Positions 13,162 to 38,276 of a stretch of 64,000 nt of DNA are shown piece by piece. Position 1 is the first letter of the stretch. Every line of letters begins with the position of its first letter. The stretch is from a virus. The translations under genes were made by a program, and so were the position numbers. The notes beneath the pieces are model-generated. The model was not told the origin of the DNA and did no database searches. It saw only the letters and a program-made list of their open reading frames with translations. The stretch lies in the IMG/VR virus record IMGVR_UViG_3300025085_002722, positions 66,386 to 130,385 of that record, one strand, 5' to 3'.

Positions 13162-13419
13162 TTACTTTTTCTTCTTAAGTTTGGCCACTTCTTTTTCTAA
13201 GTCTACAATTCGCTGTCCTAGTAACGGATATTGCTTTAACCATTTTTCTTCACGAGTAGCAATCTCTAAATCATATCTCTTTGCTACCCATTCCATTGCG
13301 TTATCCATTTTAACTTGGAACCATACACCCATTTTAGTATTTTTAAACCATTGATAAAAACTACTGCCAATTATACTTGATAGTATAGCCTTTAATGATA
13401 AAATTATTAACCAGTTCAT
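13162..13419 (-). CDS. small membrane-anchored protein
   Basis: Start MNWLIILSLKAILSSIIG (ATG 13419) just after the upstream stop; coiled-coil C-terminus. Confidence 0.6.
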   Translation of the reverse strand: MNWLIILSLKAILSSIIGSSFYQWFKNTKMGVWFQVKMDNAMEWVAKRYDLEIATREEKWLKQYPLLGQRIVDLEKEVAKLKKKK

Positions 13420-13420
13420 A

Positions 13421-13723
13421 TTACTTTCCTTTTGTATTGCTGACGTTCTTTGCTTTGCCCTTTCTATTTTTATTAGGGTCATTACGTCTCTTTTTTGATA
13501 CAGCGGCACCAATTGCCTTTTTGCCACCTTTTGCTCTTAAACTTGCGGCTTTTGATTTGCTTAAACACTTAGGCTTACCTTCGCCTTTTTTAGCATCTCC
13601 GCATTTGCCTATTCTTTCGCCTTTGGTGTTGTATCTATCCCAACCGCCACCACCGGCTCCGCCTTTCTTGCCTTTGCCAAACCAGGCTCTTAAGTCTTCT
13701 GTGAGAATTTCGTTAATTAACAT
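13421..13723 (-). CDS. basic phage module protein (WFGK...GGW...GKC...PKC)
   Basis: Start MLINEILTED (ATG 13723); LRAWF..GGW..KCG..GKPKCL motif recalls conserved aquatic-myovirus modules. Confidence 0.7.
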   Translation of the reverse strand: MLINEILTEDLRAWFGKGKKGGAGGGGWDRYNTKGERIGKCGDAKKGEGKPKCLSKSKAASLRAKGGKKAIGAAVSKKRRNDPNKNRKGKAKNVSNTKGK

Positions 13724-13724
13724 C

Positions 13725-13916
13725 TTACTTCTTTTTCTTCTTAGATTTGTTACCCCAATTTTTAGCACCTACTTTACGGCACTTAACTAAGGCTCCACTT
13801 GCGTATGCACTAGGCCACACTTTATATCTGGATTTTACTTTGTGATAGCAGGCGTCTTTTTCGCCTGCCGCTTCGTCGAATTGTTCTTCTGTAATATACC
13901 TAGAGTCGCTTATCTT
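13725..13916 (-). CDS. start-less 63-codon module in the -1 frame of the upstream gene (frameshift extension)
   Basis: Reads KISDSRYITEEQFDEAAGEKDACYHKVKSRYKVWPSAYASGALVKCRKVGAKNWGNKSKKKKK*; fills the whole gap; no usable start; TAG immediately upstream of the A9 run in this frame. Confidence 0.75.
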   Translation of the reverse strand, partial: KISDSRYITEEQFDEAAGEKDACYHKVKSRYKVWPSAYASGALVKCRKVGAKNWGNKSKKKKK

Positions 13917-14665
13917 TTTTTTTGACTATTTCTAAAGTTTGCTCTAGTAATTGGACTGTTAATTGGATTTTTGCTTACCTTTGTATTGATGCTTGCCGGC
14001 TTATTGATGCTTGCCGGCTCACCTAGTTCAATACCGCCTTTTGGTTGTTGCATAGTTTTGCCTGCTCTTTTATATGCTGGTTCATCATACTTTTTGTAAT
14101 CCTGCTTAGGCTTGTTTAAGACTTTTTCGCCTTTTGCTTTATTCTGTGCGTTTTGGAATTCCATTTGATACTTAACTAAGTTTTGCTCAACTGCGGCATA
14201 AGTCTTATTAGGATGATTTTGAACTATATACTGTCTAAATGCGTCGTGATCAAAAACTATGTTTCTTTGAGAGTCTGCTCTTGCTTGTCTTTGAGCAACG
14301 GCAGTTTGTCTTTGATTATACATTCCTGTATCGTCTGCTTCGCCTACCATTTTACCACGCATTTTATTTGGGGATTCATGTCCAGTAGTAGGTTTTACTT
14401 TCATAGTGTTTTTGTCACTAGTCTTTGCATACTTTTTACTTGCATATTTTTCTTTTAATTTGCTTAATATTGGATCGTTATTTTCCACTTCGTCTTCTCC
14501 TAACTTTGATAAGTCAATACTTAAAGGACCTTTTGGCTTTTTAAAATTTTTGTGTTTTTTGCCTGAGACAATCTTCTCAATCTTCTTTGCTTTTCTTACA
14601 CGAGGCATTTCACCACCGTTATTATTGAGTCCTTGTAATCCGTTTAGTGCCTCTTGAATGTTCAT
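13910..14665 (-). CDS. basic modular phage protein ending at an A9 slippery run
   Basis: True start MNIQEAL (ATG 14665, 5 nt after ATAAATA at 14671-14677); P..MRGKMVGE module; ends CAA AAA AAA AGA TAA. Confidence 0.7.
   Translation of the reverse strand: MNIQEALNGLQGLNNNGGEMPRVRKAKKIEKIVSGKKHKNFKKPKGPLSIDLSKLGEDEVENNDPILSKLKEKYASKKYAKTSDKNTMKVKPTTGHESPNKMRGKMVGEADDTGMYNQRQTAVAQRQARADSQRNIVFDHDAFRQYIVQNHPNKTYAAVEQNLVKYQMEFQNAQNKAKGEKVLNKPKQDYKKYDEPAYKRAGKTMQQPKGGIELGEPASINKPASINTKVSKNPINSPITRANFRNSQKKR
13984..14019. repeat. 18-bp tandem duplication within CDS (PASIN repeated at 6-aa period)
   Basis: tattgatgcttgccggct twice. Confidence 0.85.
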
Positions 14666-14699
14666 ACATGTATTTATCTCAGAGATAGAAATTACGGCC

Positions 14700-14730
14700 A
14701 AAAAAATCCCCCTAAAATTAAGGGGGATTT
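14700..14730 (-). terminator. rho-independent terminator
   Basis: AAATCCCCCT/AGGGGGATTT stem with 7-nt loop, followed by a U-tract on the minus strand, after gene 14747-15724. Confidence 0.85.
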
Positions 14731-15737: not shown

Positions 15738-17576
15738 TTAAGAAACACTAATTGCTGATATAGAGTTTGAACTACCTAGTTTAACTCTAACCAAAACAAC
15801 GTTATTGGTGGCGTTTGTTGTGCTTTCTGTACCTAATGTTATCGAAACTGAGCCGGAACTCCCACTTGCGACTGAACCATTACCACAGCCTGCACCATTA
15901 CCTGTACCACCTGGGTTACCTGAGCCATCGTATAATGTAAATGCATCATACCATGCTCCACCAGTTGCGTTAGGTGATGTGCTATTGCTATCACTAACTC
16001 CTGGCAATCCTATATATAGTCCTGAATAAGAACCTGTTATGCTAATACTAAAAGTACTAACGGCTGATTTGGCAAAATAGAATGTCATATACTGAGTAGC
16101 ATCTTTGCCACTGTAGTCTATTGCATTTTCATTTGGCCAATAGCCTGATGTGTAATCAGTTTGATCAGAACTTAAAATACCTGCAACTACTCCAGCCTCG
16201 TGTTCATAACCACTTGCTGTTAAGTCTTGGGTACTGTCCCATGTTAAACTGCTACTTGGAAGGTTACCTGCGCCTAAAGGTGTATCACCTGTCGCACTCG
16301 AACCTAAGTCTACTCTATTACCGCCAGTTGCTCCTGATGGTATAGATATGTTTTGCTCATCAACATCACTGCTTCGCGCCGTGCCTGCTTTGAGTAAGAT
16401 TGTACCGGATATGCTCTGAGAGCCTGATCCGTTTACGTTTGTGCCTGTTACTGTTAATGAACCTGACGTATGTCTATTAGATCCATTTACATTCACTGTT
16501 AAAGCACTCAATGATTGAGCACTTGTTGTTTGTCTGGTTATTGGAGTACTTACGCCTACATCTGAATAGGAATAACTCTGAGAACTAATAATACTATCAG
16601 AACCTGAAACACTTATCGGGTTTCCGTTATAGTATGTTTCTCCTGCCAAATTCGTCATTGTCAAGTTACCAATTGCAACTGCACCACTAGTACCAAAATG
16701 TTCGATACCTGAACTGTATGCTGTTGTACCATTTGTGTCACCTGTAATAGTCCCTGACGCAACTGTTGGTGATCCTGTTAGATCATCTACTACAAAGTAC
16801 ACTTCATTAGTGTCATCTGTATCAGTTTTTGTCATTTGGATTCTATTCCACCCTGTACTCAGGGCCGATGCTATTCTAATTTGAGCATCACTTTCTGTAT
16901 AAAATCCTGGTGTATCACTTGGCGAGTCAGCATGGCCGCTAACTCTTAAATCAGTATAAGTACCATCTTTGTCTGTGCCGTCGAATGTTACACTACCTGA
17001 GGTAGAGCCATTGACTACAGCCGCTAATGTTCCTGAGTCTGATCTAAAGTTGTCTACTTGACTTGAATTTGGAGTAGTATCAGTTACACGAGTCACACTT
17101 GCCCCAGCACTTGCTGGAAGTGTACCTCCGGAGGTTCTATCTGGAACTGAGCCATCTGCAAGATATGGTGAACTTCCTACACTTGAAACTGTTAAAGTTT
17201 CGCTGTTAGGAAAATCTCCAGGTGCTGTTGGTACTAACAATCCTAAAGTTTCATTTAGTGTATCGATCGCACTTGAAATTTTAGTACTATCTGTTAGTGT
17301 AATTGCACCACCGGCATAACTTCCGTCGCCGTATGATGTAACATCTCCCAAACTAATTTGGAATCCATCTGCACTCCCGGCAATACCTGAGTCAAATTGT
17401 GCTTTAGTTACAAAATGACTTGCGGCTGTACCGTTTGCTCCTGAGATTGTGGCCAGTGCTCCAGCGGCAGTCTTAAGGATAACGTTTCCGCCATCGCTCT
17501 CGATTGTATTACCTCTTTTGCCTAATTCTATATTGGCGCCTACACCTTTTAATCCATAATTTTTAGTGTCTGCCAT
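15738..17576 (-). CDS. putative virion structural (tail/baseplate-associated) protein
   Basis: 612 aa, strongly S/T/G-rich; AIDTLNE heptad segment; GGAG SD. Confidence 0.6.
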   Translation of the reverse strand: MADTKNYGLKGVGANIELGKRGNTIESDGGNVILKTAAGALATISGANGTAASHFVTKAQFDSGIAGSADGFQISLGDVTSYGDGSYAGGAITLTDSTKISSAIDTLNETLGLLVPTAPGDFPNSETLTVSSVGSSPYLADGSVPDRTSGGTLPASAGASVTRVTDTTPNSSQVDNFRSDSGTLAAVVNGSTSGSVTFDGTDKDGTYTDLRVSGHADSPSDTPGFYTESDAQIRIASALSTGWNRIQMTKTDTDDTNEVYFVVDDLTGSPTVASGTITGDTNGTTAYSSGIEHFGTSGAVAIGNLTMTNLAGETYYNGNPISVSGSDSIISSQSYSYSDVGVSTPITRQTTSAQSLSALTVNVNGSNRHTSGSLTVTGTNVNGSGSQSISGTILLKAGTARSSDVDEQNISIPSGATGGNRVDLGSSATGDTPLGAGNLPSSSLTWDSTQDLTASGYEHEAGVVAGILSSDQTDYTSGYWPNENAIDYSGKDATQYMTFYFAKSAVSTFSISITGSYSGLYIGLPGVSDSNSTSPNATGGAWYDAFTLYDGSGNPGGTGNGAGCGNGSVASGSSGSVSITLGTESTTNATNNVVLVRVKLGSSNSISAISVS

Positions 17577-26720: not shown

Positions 26721-26748
26721 ATGTGTATATTATCCGATAAATATGTGT

Positions 26749-28350
26749 ATGTTATTTGGTATTCTAACATTAATTACTGCACTGGCTATTGCCGGTGTTG
26801 CCGCATGGTTTTCCATTGTCGGCTTAATGCTACTATTTAGTGGTATGCCCCTGAGTATAGCCGTAATGGCTGGCACATTAGAAGTAGGTAAACTCCTAAC
26901 TGCTAGTTGGCTGTACAGATACTGGAACGAAACCAGCATAATGTTGCGTACCTACCTCACGACCGCAGTTGTTGTCTTAATGATTGTTACCAGCATAGGT
27001 ATTTTTGGATATTTGAGTAAAGCCGCTTCTGATCAAGCAGGAGATATAGGCGATGCTGTAGCAGTAGTTGAAAGAATCGACGCTCAAATAGATAGAGAAG
27101 AAAACAAAATTGCATTAATTGAAGATAGAATACTAGGCATAGGCGGTAGTGTTGATATTAGTGCCAGCATAGAAGCACAAGAAGATATTAGAGACGGTGC
27201 TTGGGCAAGAGTACAAGGCGATATAGATTACAACCAAGAGCAGATCGAGAACGTTAGAGAACAACTCAAAGTAGACATTGCTCAACAAGATAGTAGATTA
27301 GCAGAATTAGACAAAGCAGTAAATGAACTTAGAGCAAAAGGTGTAGAAGTTGTTACACTAGATGAGGGCGGAGCATTTAGAAGTGCTGAAACCGAAAAGA
27401 TAGATTACATCGCACAGGCAAATGAACTTAGGGCAAGCCAACAAGCAGAACGTGATGAAATAAAAGCAGAAAAACAAAGTTTACGTGATACAGCAACAGC
27501 AGATATAAATGTATTCCAAACTGCTATTGACAATTATAGACAACAAGCACAAGACGATATAAACGGTGCTAACGCAGAAATAAACAGATTGCGTAATCAA
27601 AGTTCAACACAGGCAGATGATAACATAAACAAGATAAATGCTTTTAACGAGGACATCGACGCCATTTACGCCAACATAGTAACACTTAAAGACGAGAAAT
27701 TTGACGCAGAAAGCAAGATAAGAAACTTAGACAGAGAAGTTGGGCCAATCAAATACTTGGCACAATTAATTTACGGCAGTGAAGAAAGAGATGTATTAGA
27801 TCAGGCAATACGTTTATTCATATTAATGTTAGTGTTTGTGTTTGATCCACTAGCAGTTATGTTAGTTATTGCGGCTAACCAAACATTATTACGTTATGGT
27901 ATTAACTTAGAAAGCAGTGGACCACCAATGCCGCCTAAGGAACCAGAGCCAGAGCCAGAAGTAGAAGTAGAAGAAATAACAGACAAGGATTACGAGTTGC
28001 CACGAGACCCAGAAGGCGACCCAGGTAGTTTCTTTGATAAACCAAGTGCAGTAGATGATGCCGCTGATGTAATGAGCGGGTACGATGGAAGAGACAAAAC
28101 ATTTTTTGAAAGTATAAACGAACCTATTGTAAACATAGACAATCAAAAAACAGAAGACATAGTAAATCAAATTGAGAAAACTGAAAAACTAGAAGACGAC
28201 CTTAACAAAATATTAGGCGGCAAGACAAAAGCACAATTAATGCAGATGGCATTAGATGGTGGAATAGAATTACCTGCACAATTAAGCAAAGCAGAAATGG
28301 TTGCAAACGTTATACAAAATTACGACAGTATCACCAAAAAAAAAATTTAA
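26749..28350 (+). CDS. membrane protein with long coiled coil; ends at an A10 slippery run
   Basis: Three N-terminal TM helices, LEVGKL, GIFGYLSKA, heptads, EVGPIKY, VFDPLAV TM; start ATG 26749, 5 nt after ATAAATA. Confidence 0.8.
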   Translation: MLFGILTLITALAIAGVAAWFSIVGLMLLFSGMPLSIAVMAGTLEVGKLLTASWLYRYWNETSIMLRTYLTTAVVVLMIVTSIGIFGYLSKAASDQAGDIGDAVAVVERIDAQIDREENKIALIEDRILGIGGSVDISASIEAQEDIRDGAWARVQGDIDYNQEQIENVREQLKVDIAQQDSRLAELDKAVNELRAKGVEVVTLDEGGAFRSAETEKIDYIAQANELRASQQAERDEIKAEKQSLRDTATADINVFQTAIDNYRQQAQDDINGANAEINRLRNQSSTQADDNINKINAFNEDIDAIYANIVTLKDEKFDAESKIRNLDREVGPIKYLAQLIYGSEERDVLDQAIRLFILMLVFVFDPLAVMLVIAANQTLLRYGINLESSGPPMPPKEPEPEPEVEVEEITDKDYELPRDPEGDPGSFFDKPSAVDDAADVMSGYDGRDKTFFESINEPIVNIDNQKTEDIVNQIEKTEKLEDDLNKILGGKTKAQLMQMALDGGIELPAQLSKAEMVANVIQNYDSITKKKI

Positions 28351-28859
28351 AAATAGACAAACTAGAAACTGAATTAAAAGATTCAGAATATAGGTATCAA
28401 AAGCAATTAGACGAATTAAACGATAAGTACAATAGAACACTAGAAAGTCTCGAAGATGCCAAGAATTCGCTTGACATAAAACCAAAAGAAGTTATAATAG
28501 AAAAAGAAATCATTAAGGAAGTAATTAAGGAGGTTCCTGTTGAGGTCGAGAAAATTGTCGAAGTTGAACGCAAGGTCGAGGTCCCAAAGGAGGTTGTGGT
28601 CACTCGCGAAGTCGAAGTCCCAGGACCCGAGCGTATTGTTGAGGTCCCCGGACCAGAACGAATCGTGGAACGAATCGTGGAAGTCGAAGTCCCCGGACCA
28701 GAAAGAATAGTCGAAAAGATTGTCGAAGTACCAGTAGAATCTAAACCCAAACCCAAAGTACCCAACAGTTGGACATTTACTCCAAAGAAAGATCTGCCAG
28801 TAGATAACGCAGATAATCCTACAGATAGTAAATACTACATTAAGAAACCTAAAAGTTAA
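28344..28859 (+). CDS. start-less -1-frame continuation (coiled coil plus V/E/P repeats)
   Basis: Reads NLKIDKLETELKDSEYRYQKQLDELNDKYNRTLESLEDAKNSLDIKPKEVIIEKEIIKEV...; first possible start is GTG 28596, inside the repeats. Confidence 0.7.
   Translation, partial: NLKIDKLETELKDSEYRYQKQLDELNDKYNRTLESLEDAKNSLDIKPKEVIIEKEIIKEVIKEVPVEVEKIVEVERKVEVPKEVVVTREVEVPGPERIVEVPGPERIVERIVEVEVPGPERIVEKIVEVPVESKPKPKVPNSWTFTPKKDLPVDNADNPTDSKYYIKKPKS
28485..28739 (+). repeat. VEVPGPERIV / EKIVEV protein repeats (articulin/alveolin-like)
   Basis: EVPGPERIV three times plus flanking (E/K)(I/V)VEV units, with varied synonymous codons. Confidence 0.85.
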
Positions 28860-30097
28860 TGACAGACGACAACAACACAGATAAAAGTTCACTATCTTGT
28901 AATTTTTGTGGTAAGCACAGGAACGAAGTTAATAAACTTGTAGCAGGTCCAGATGTTTACATTTGCAACGAATGTATAGAATTATCATACAAAATCATAG
29001 ACGATGAGTTCACCGAAGAAGATCTGCAATTAGATAATATTGCCGACCCTAAAGAGATACGTGAATACTTGGACAAATATATTACTGGTCAAGATTATGC
29101 TAAAAAAGTTTTAAGTGTAAGTGCATACAATCATTACAAACGGATTGAGTCACCTGTAGTAGATGATGTTGAAATAGAAAAAAGCAATATACTTATGCTA
29201 GGACCATCTGGTGTTGGTAAAACATTACTTGCAAAAACATTATCTAAAAAACTAAAAGTGCCATTTACAATAGCAGATGCTACAACACTAACTGAAGCAG
29301 GTTATGTTGGTGAAGATGCAGAAAGTGTACTAGAACGTTTAATACAAGCCGCTAATGGAGATATAACATTAGCAGAAAAAGGCATAGTGTTTATAGACGA
29401 AGTTGATAAAAAGGCCCGTAGCAGTGAATCTAACACGTCTACACGTGATGTTAGTGGCGAGGGTGTGCAACAAGCACTCTTAAGATTAATAGAGGGCACA
29501 ACAACGTATATTAATGTTGGTTCCAATAAATTATCAAGTGAAAAAATTGAATTCAGTACTGAAAACATTCTGTTCATATTGGGCGGTGCATTTGTTGGAT
29601 TAGATAAAGTGATTAAGGCCAGGCTCAACAAGAAAAATAAAATAGGATTCAATTCTGCACTTGACAACGAAAACGATTTAGACAAAGATGTTTATTTACA
29701 TGCCACACACGAAGATATTATACAATACGGTTTGATACCAGAACTAGTTGGTAGACTTCCTGTGTTGTCAGGTTTAACAGACTTAGATGTAAGCGACTTA
29801 ACACACATACAGAAAGAAAGTAAAAATAGTGTAAGCAATCAAGTCAAAGCATTGTATAAACTTGAAGGTATTGATGTAGGCTTTACAGATAATTTTTATA
29901 AAATTGTATCAAAAGAAGCAATTAAATTAAAAACAGGTGCCAGAGGAATACGAAGTGTATTAGAACAATTTTTTATTGAACTAACATATAACATTACAGA
30001 TCTTAAGGCACAAAAAGTCAAAGAAATTTACATTGATAATCTTGATCATGAAACTATTTCATATATCAAAGAGGTTGACAATGAAGAAGATAACTAG
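28859..30097 (+). CDS. clpX: ATP-dependent Clp protease ATP-binding subunit ClpX
   Basis: CNFC..CNEC zinc domain, GPSGVGKT, DATTLTEAGYVGED, RDVSGEGVQQALL, IGF loop, TGARG. Confidence 0.96.
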   Translation: MTDDNNTDKSSLSCNFCGKHRNEVNKLVAGPDVYICNECIELSYKIIDDEFTEEDLQLDNIADPKEIREYLDKYITGQDYAKKVLSVSAYNHYKRIESPVVDDVEIEKSNILMLGPSGVGKTLLAKTLSKKLKVPFTIADATTLTEAGYVGEDAESVLERLIQAANGDITLAEKGIVFIDEVDKKARSSESNTSTRDVSGEGVQQALLRLIEGTTTYINVGSNKLSSEKIEFSTENILFILGGAFVGLDKVIKARLNKKNKIGFNSALDNENDLDKDVYLHATHEDIIQYGLIPELVGRLPVLSGLTDLDVSDLTHIQKESKNSVSNQVKALYKLEGIDVGFTDNFYKIVSKEAIKLKTGARGIRSVLEQFFIELTYNITDLKAQKVKEIYIDNLDHETISYIKEVDNEEDN

Positions 30098-37979: not shown

Positions 37980-38276
37980 ATGAGTAAAGCAGATATTAGA
38001 ACTAGAAAAACAGTAAACCTCAAATATCCTGACAGGTTTAAAATTGTTATTTTAAATGATGATTATACACCATTTGATTTTGTTATACAATTACTTGTAG
38101 AGTTGTTTAATAAAAACATAGACGAAGCAAAAAAAATTACTTCGCAAGTGCATGAACAAGGGCAAGGTGTCATAGGTTACTACAATGCCGAGATAGCCGA
38201 GCAAAAAACCAATGAAGCAACTGTGGCTTCACGAACAGCAGGGTATCCTCTAGTCGTGAAGGTGCAGAAAGCATGA
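37980..38276 (+). CDS. clpS: N-degron adaptor ClpS
   Basis: [26 protein letters not shown]. Confidence 0.93.

Follow-up and report, generated by a model that had tools for sequence, protein, structure and literature searches.

The carrier gene and its start-less continuation

The final 64 kb of a 130,385-base virus record of IMG/VR (IMGVR_UViG_3300025085_002722, positions 66,386 to 130,385; this stretch is referred to here as the window), which comes from marine metagenomes and has a G+C content of 36%, contain a minus-strand gene that ends one codon behind nine consecutive adenines, together with an overlapping -1 reading frame that runs past this end into a conserved phage module and offers no start codon ahead of it. 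We call the gene the carrier and the module, which recurs in aquatic phages, module B; the features are collected in Table 1. Comparison with relatives shows that the -1 frame is maintained as coding sequence behind an invariant A9 run, and the run is very probably a site of programmed recoding, by RNA polymerase or by the ribosome, which would yield a short protein and a C-terminally extended one.

On its own strand the carrier ends AGT CAA AAA AAA AGA TAA, with the heptamer A_AAA_AAA in phase inside the run. The -1 frame reads TAG TCA AAA AAA AAG ATA AGC... and remains open for 66 codons past the TAG, 63 of them past the slip point, up to ...GNKSKKKKK TAA, and a single G (13724) separates this stop from the ATG (13723) of the next gene. 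With the TAG directly ahead of the A's, the -1 frame can be entered within the A9 run only. The sole ATG, GTG or TTG in the window's -1 open reading frame (ORF) is the GTG of KVWPS (offset 35; extension codon 33), which lies within the conserved core of module B. A preliminary description of this DNA had reported the carrier ending with its T9 on the plus strand, the 63-codon -1 frame closing 1 nt ahead of the next ATG, the stops on both sides that confine a shift to the run, the GTG as only internal start, and A_AAA_AAA as a slippery pattern of the type X_XXY_YYZ. All of these are borne out by the sequence, and an in-phase heptamer is found at each of the 10 module-bearing loci, the window among them, and at a second site described below.

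Table 1. Features at the two candidate slip sites and around them (window coordinates).
Feature	Position	Strand	Remarks
Carrier gene	13913..14665	-	251 aa from ATG 14665; stop 13910-13912
A9 run, candidate slip site	13915..13923	-	T9 on the plus strand; zero frame CA[A AAA AAA A]GA
TAG shutting the -1 frame	13926..13928	-	Directly 5' of the A9 run
Zero-frame stop TAA	13910..13912	-	One codon past A9; ends the short isoform ...NSQKKR
Trans-frame extension, 63 codons	13728..13916	-	KISDSRYITEEQFDEAAGEKDACYHKV...KSKKKKK; stop TAA 13725-13727
Module B core	13749..13856	-	DACYHKVKSRYKVWPSAYASGALVKCRKVGAKNWGN; predicted small helical domain
Module A gene	13421..13723	-	100 aa, own ATG one base past the extension stop; phrog_727 match
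Second candidate slip site, A10	28336..28345	+	End of gene 26743-28350: ACC AAA AAA AAA ATT TAA
Start-less -1 ORF, 171 codons	28344..28856	+	Coiled-coil-like, then V/E/P repeats; ends TAATG at the clpX-like gene
ClpX homologue	28859-30097	+	Pfam zinc finger and AAA domain; starts at the TAATG closing the site-2 extension
ATAAATA box	14671..14677	-	Putative, T4-late-promoter-like; 5 nt upstream of ATG 14665
Terminator-like hairpin	14708-14725		Just upstream of the ATAAATA box
Small gene	37980-38276	+	ClpS-like by eye only

Conservation of the design among relatives

The carrier was compared with 19 metagenome loci (L136-L154) and three IMG/VR relatives, run lengths being compared between assembled contigs. 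Nine of the 19 loci bear module B (L138, L141, L142, L145, L147, L150 and L152-154), on contigs with names of JGI, TARA and GenBank-WGS styles, and they represent six distinct lineages besides the window. In all nine, at 58-82% carrier identity to the window, the string C-A9-G is exact, the zero frame gives QKKR and then a stop, and a stop 2-3 codons upstream of the A's closes the -1 frame. The bases at the zero-frame ending vary, as AGA TAA, AGA TAG or AGG TAA. The -1 ORF of the module-bearing loci has 66-133 codons, starts KKK[IV][SGT]DS and ends in module B, and its extension comes in a 63-codon type (as in the window), an 82-codon type and a 129-130-codon type with a CPxCGG piece ahead of B. 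Not one ATG, GTG or TTG is found across the whole -1 ORF of L141/L142 and L150; in the other loci such starts are limited to the GTG of the core, a TTG that L145 also has in the core, and an ATG in L138 (codon 48).

Synonymous divergence (dS) of the carrier gene between module-bearing lineages is 0.4-1.5, a separation long enough for the run to have been altered. As proposed in the preliminary description, the A-run, the stop and the -1 continuation are kept together, in nine of 19 related loci and over this divergence. The contrary arrangement, carrier and module in one frame with no slippery run, was looked for; neither it nor an interrupted run occurs in any of the nine loci, and none of the 52 carrier homologues (167-409 aa) has a length compatible with a fusion to module B.

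In its own frame the -1 ORF shows the divergence pattern of a coding sequence under purifying selection. Among six short-form pairs (window, L141, L145, L150) the ratio of non-synonymous to synonymous divergence (dN/dS) is 0.012-0.101 at dS 0.39-1.74; it is 0.18-0.22 in long-form pairs and 0.33 in the 87-codon linker alone (L138 vs L147). The peptide KKK[IV][SGT]DS behind the run is kept through conservative replacements that need several base changes, such as ATA AGC to GTA ACT.

The other 10 of the 19 loci, together with the three IMG/VR relatives, are without the module. Their carrier stops no more than a few codons away from where the window's does (...SPITRANFKNTNK*, ...NEIS*, ...PTK*, ...NQKK*), and the MNWLIIL gene, with its start at 13419 in the window, follows directly. 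Because module-free relatives end the carrier there and no homologue of fusion length exists (0/52), the short form is evidently a complete protein and module B an add-on.

A truncated larger gene, that is, a broken homologue of S-RIM8 gp114 or S-SSM5_108, was also considered and is rejected, as the carrier's relatives end naturally at the same spot.

One module-free locus (L146:1101-1237) has a carrier ending QKK* with an A8 run right before TAA-ATG; this ending either represents a forerunner of the slip site or was left over when the module was lost.

In a tree of carrier proteins, module-bearing and module-free loci are interleaved, and at least 3-4 changes are needed to account for their distribution. 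For this reason the design is either old and repeatedly lost, or mobile by recombination along with the QKKR tail. Further searches added no lineage. The junction DNA pattern with variable run length had 0 matches in viral_contigs and 0 in metagenome_contigs; an IMG/VR scan with carrier alignment A3 gave no relative, its search patterns being poor; and a scan with the L147 protein returned only three already-known contigs, with no further module-bearing lineage from IMG/VR.

Module B and the block downstream of the carrier

Module B takes up the 3' two thirds of the -1 ORF. It matches phrog_727 (E 4.9e-26), and an alignment of 78 sequences has 27 invariant columns. Its score against Pfam DUF5872 is 15.7 bits, below the cut-off of 27.5, and it is not assigned to that family. 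Module B DNA (window 13734-13892) matched 193 GenBank cyanophage records, with 74-80% identity in the 40 records listed, and a relative is encoded in 540 of 600 pattern-matched IMG/VR stretches. By these counts, few short segments of aquatic phage genomes are as well conserved as module B. The module is internal to long modular proteins in S-RIM8 gp114 and S-SSM5_108; in the best 80 IMG/VR loci it sits in a long ORF or forms a stand-alone gene of ~62 aa (MKINEVTGITEEEF...). An in-frame upstream ATG, GTG or TTG is present in 79 of these 80 loci, the remaining one being cut by the contig end, and a start-less module B is therefore unusual and the loss of the start specific to loci with the A9 run. 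The structure model is small and helical (pLDDT, predicted local distance difference test, 67.5). There was no PDB sequence match, Foldseek gave 0 matches of this model in the PDB, and the best Z of the wide VIA-align comparison, 2.7, is not meaningful. The module B clusters of the Atlas are all hypothetical viral, one of them with 13% DUF5872.

Together with the module A gene, module B forms a block of ~490 bp (window 13420-13909) that is present in nine and absent from 10 of the 19 relatives. In relatives the extension is followed by various small basic genes, e.g., MKTLREYINIIE..., MKLEDFNKDL... and MKLDEIYKALEGKSPHKKG..., and the site downstream of the carrier looks like a hot spot for the swapping of short modules. 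A contig of run X13, from another metagenome, joins position 13699 back to 13237, which points to other phages having the module A region in rearranged copies.

The preliminary description had called module B a recurrent aquatic-myovirus module. The recurrence stands on the GenBank and IMG/VR counts above; the myovirus label is not necessarily valid for the phage itself. A neighbouring structural protein of 612 aa (window 15738-17576, minus strand) is closest, with 43-44% identity over 86-87% of its length, to (putative tail) proteins of giant, phiCbK-like phages of Caulobacter, and thus resembles siphophage tail proteins rather than those of T4. The phage is probably not a cyanomyovirus, and because of this protein may be a large siphophage of an alphaproteobacterium, despite having modules A and B in common with Kyanoviridae.

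A second site and the rarity of long A/T runs

The preliminary description had stated that the same design recurs at 28336. It does: an A10 run is again followed one codon later by a stop and continued by a long -1 ORF without a start, in which the earliest canonical start is a GTG at codon 84. Two relatives, L087 and L088, have an identical A10 junction; their extension has dS 0.37 and dN/dS 0.156 (vs L087), and the upstream gene dS 0.73. Their contigs in IMG/VR also hold L004/L005, which are without module B at the first site. In the more distant L089-L096, the protein corresponding to the extension has an ordinary gene of its own, starting with ATG and overlapping the upstream gene at its end. 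An independent Logan contig (run X9) spans 27876-29000 with 0 differences.

Long A/T homopolymers are about five-fold rarer in the record than base composition predicts: 2 runs of at least 9 are seen vs ~10 expected, and 6 of at least 8 vs ~30. Both runs of at least 9 sit one codon before a stop that is followed by a long start-less -1 ORF, and a chance origin of this shared design is unlikely. In-phase A_AAA_AAA heptamers number 15 in 106 long ORFs. Twelve of these lie inside ordinary genes, where the -1 frames extend for just 2-19 codons; the remaining three are the two sites and one at ~46791, which is an ordinary overlap with a gene having its own ATG.

Mechanism and alternative explanations

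From this architecture we infer a slip at the run, and with it a slipping machine, a ratio of isoforms and a role for the module. In the scheme that we propose, unaltered mRNA would be read CAA AAA AAA AGA TAA in the zero frame and release the 251-aa protein, and in a fraction of transcripts RNA polymerase would slip on the T9 template and add one A, giving A10. Ordinary translation of the A10 transcript would then proceed as ...SQKKK-ISDSRYITEEQFDEAAGEKDACYHKV... for 63 extra codons and place module B at the C-terminus, with a predicted fusion junction peptide ...NSQKKKISDSRY... (...NSQKKK-ISDSRY...). The same protein would come from ribosomal -1 slippage on the in-phase heptamer, which may play a part as well. 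Of the preliminary claim of programmed recoding, the conserved frame switch at the run is upheld by the nine of 19 loci and by dN/dS; between ribosome and polymerase, the evidence leans towards the polymerase, which is somewhat probable as the main route.

This leaning has several grounds, namely the lack of a conserved stimulator, the variation of the 6-10 nt upstream, the fixation of nine A's instead of seven, and the tolerance of bare heptamers elsewhere in the genome. The two runs, A9 and A10, are both at least nine A's long, and behind a conserved run lies a conserved ORF that is reached by the addition of one base, as expected of a polymerase slippage site. Were the ribosome the only agent, the Lys-tRNAs in its P and A sites would slip back one base on A_AAA_AAA and the same two proteins would result. 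We consider this explanation, which the preliminary description had put first, possible but rather unlikely. It draws on the heptamer, in phase at all 10 loci and at site 2, and on certain tailed-phage frameshifts that are described as working at low efficiency without stimulators (PMC5009743). Nevertheless, no conserved hairpin was found at the canonical 5-9 nt downstream of the run and no common structure in the 70 nt downstream (z-scores -2.0 to +1.0), where the sequence differs between short and long forms. A conserved Shine-Dalgarno-like element upstream of the run is likewise absent, the 6-10 nt there varying freely. A heptamer lacking a conserved stimulator lowers the claim of the ribosome, and so do the 12 further in-phase heptamers within ordinary genes and the invariance of all nine A's, two beyond the heptamer. 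A perfect stem of 7-8 bp (GCAGGCG, loop of 7, CGCCTGC) does lie at 13847-13869 on the minus strand, in the AAGEKDAC codons of module B. It is the sole recurrent hairpin, occurs in short-form relatives only (~-16 kcal/mol per 70-nt stretch) and starts 46 nt past the run, which is too far for a classical frameshift stimulator.

Explanations without recoding fare considerably worse. Translation of module B alone from a non-canonical start, either the ATA behind the run or the ATT/ATC at YITEE, perhaps coupled to termination at the TAA, would be in keeping with the common occurrence of ~62-aa stand-alone B genes and with the alignment of the ATT of YITEE to an ATG in L006, L010 and L013 (MTEEQF). 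We regard it as very unlikely, since no candidate codon is common to all lineages (ATA is GTA in L152-154, and L145 and L150 have ATC for ATT), an equivalent codon is missing from the long forms, the codons between the run and the candidate starts are conserved at the protein level, and B has an ordinary upstream start in all but one of the 80 IMG/VR loci. It is highly improbable that the homopolymers have been miscounted and that the real DNA holds A10 here and A11 at site 2, making plain fused genes. One extra A would mend both sites, which is the usual direction of homopolymer under-calling, and the run lengths are known from assembled contigs rather than from raw reads. However, ten differently named contigs all have A9, and the A10 of site 2 is found in three contigs and in the independent X9 Logan assembly, on which agreement we reject an assembly error; in addition, the four A8 runs of the record cause no frame break, the zero-frame stop one codon past the run survives base changes (TAA/TAG, AGA/AGG), and module-free relatives end the protein at the same place. 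The start-less ORF might finally be an untranslated remnant of a module inserted out of frame, given that B and A are an insertion relative to 10 of the 19 relatives and that the carrier tree is interleaved with its at least 3-4 changes. This is barely credible, and a dead remnant is rejected, in view of a dN/dS of 0.01-0.22 at dS up to 1.7 and of the absence of any stop or indel in seven lineages.

Several considerations weigh against polymerase slippage as proposed here, or against the significance of the run as such. The slippage is deduced from assembled contigs, and no contig among those listed, RNA run X15 included, spans 13915-13923. A/T runs are depleted about five-fold at length 8 and at length 9 alike, so that no step at 9 points to the polymerase in particular. 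With a heptamer in phase, ribosomal -1 frameshifting is a live alternative, and the polymerase precedents come from other bacteria and may not hold for the RNA polymerase of the host. Moreover, QKK(R) may be a mere lysine-rich tail. As 80% of Lys codons are AAA and 88 of 163 KK pairs read AAAAAA, the conservation of the run alone is, on a rough estimate over 4-6 independent lineages, only moderately improbable; the weight therefore rests on the whole design.

Comparison with known systems

Programmed ribosomal frameshifting of the -1 type is well known in phage genes such as the lambda G/GT tail assembly chaperone and T7 gene 10A/10B. The carrier is like these in its proposed short and long isoforms with a common N-terminus, in the heptamer near the end of the upstream ORF and in the conservation of the layout. 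It is unlike them in that the carrier has no Pfam or PHROG match and thus came out as neither a tail chaperone nor a capsid gene, no stimulator was found, and the run is longer than a heptamer. Tail assembly chaperones with frameshifting are treated in PMC10885494.

Closer parallels exist among bacterial genes with polymerase slippage. The preliminary description had held that runs of at least 9 A allow RNA-polymerase slippage, and this has a published precedent: as described in PMC5009743 (Atkins et al., 2016), runs of 9 A/T are the threshold for efficient slippage of bacterial RNA polymerase, Thermus dnaX makes use of it, and in Shigella spa13 a C-terminal extension is present on 25-30% of the product. 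Like the phage gene, Thermus thermophilus dnaX (tau/gamma) has a run of exactly 9 A/T; its mRNA population is heterogeneous and standard translation gives two products (PMC5009743), as we propose for the phage gene. However, the zero frame of dnaX gives the long and slippage the short product, whereas the zero frame of the carrier gives the short one; and the gene families are unrelated. In Citrobacter rodentium tssM1, as reported in PMC4256274, an A11 directly before the stop leads to two length variants, both required. This gene and Yersinia pseudotuberculosis tssM3 (Gueguen et al., 2014; PMC4256274) resemble the carrier in having poly-A right before a stop, and the A's added by polymerase in tssM1 give short and C-terminally extended variants, the same product layout as we propose for the phage gene. 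The differences are that tssM1 is a bacterial secretion gene with A11 in which slippage was experimentally shown, whereas the phage gene has A9 and a slip that is proposed, and that the part appended to the phage protein is a mobile module with its own start codon in other phages.

The cyanomyovirus phrog_727, S-RIM8 gp114 and S-SSM5_108 proteins contain the same modules B and A. There, however, the modules are parts of a single ordinary ORF or are small genes with their own ATG, whereas the B of the window is start-less and reached only via the A9 run.

Further features of the locus

The mechanical ORF of the carrier covers 13910-14701, and a start at TTG 14701 would give 263 aa; ATG 14665 is most likely the true start, and the N-terminus MNIQEALNGLQGLNNNGGEMPRV is conserved. 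The carrier protein has no Pfam or PHROG match and no PDB sequence match. Given the ATAAATA box and the terminator-like hairpin (Table 1), a transcription unit probably begins here, ahead of the carrier gene, with the box as putative promoter. No tRNA genes were found in the window, and Rfam gave nothing at or above threshold in window 13300-14300.

Possible function and significance

Internal head proteins of the T4 type carry a targeting leader at the N-terminus and are cut by the prohead protease at (I/L)-x-E sites. Stand-alone B genes (e.g., MKINEV.. and MRLDD..) and the neighbouring small genes of relatives begin with a short leader M-[KRQ]-hydrophobic-x-[DE], the carrier by eye starts MNIQE or MKIDE, and a hydrophobic-x-E motif (FDE, IDE, LLE) stands ahead of the B core. 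Searches of the 130-kb fragment for a T4-type prohead protease, capsid and portal (PF03420, PF07068, PF07230) found none, the controls for the first two being silent. If these patterns are leaders and protease sites of the T4 type, the start-less and leader-less module B might be carried into the head on the C-terminus of the carrier, in a fixed fraction of its copies; the preliminary description had likewise suggested a head-cargo protein with a sub-stoichiometric long isoform.

In the literature searched, outside which lie supplements and subscription journals, we found no paper on the gene family, module B or either of the two sites, and DUF5872 is mentioned in one algal-virus paper. Poly-A recoding with short and C-terminally extended isoforms is of a kind already known; the literature searched has no description of it in this gene family. 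Gene callers stop the carrier at its zero-frame stop and leave the module unannotated or truncated, and the fusion protein is absent from a collection of 5.8 billion sequences. A probable isoform, conserved in a widespread family of marine phages, therefore escapes current annotation.

Module-bearing and module-free relatives, extensions both short and long, and the module-free A8 variant make up a natural series at one locus, which could show how a slip site captures a start-less mobile module. It is conceivable, though doubtful, that this phage family uses poly-A slippage as a general docking device for mobile cargo modules. Modules that elsewhere have a start and a short N-terminal leader of their own would in that case have shed both. 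Attached to the C-terminus of a carrier that does have a leader, on a fixed share of its copies, they might enter the capsid and be released there by a protease. If docking of this kind is real, it would be exemplified twice, by the A9 run with module B and by the A10 run whose extension was once a stand-alone gene, and run length would tune the dose. More generally, the presence of two sites in one genome suggests that poly-A recoding may be a regular expression device of large aquatic phages.

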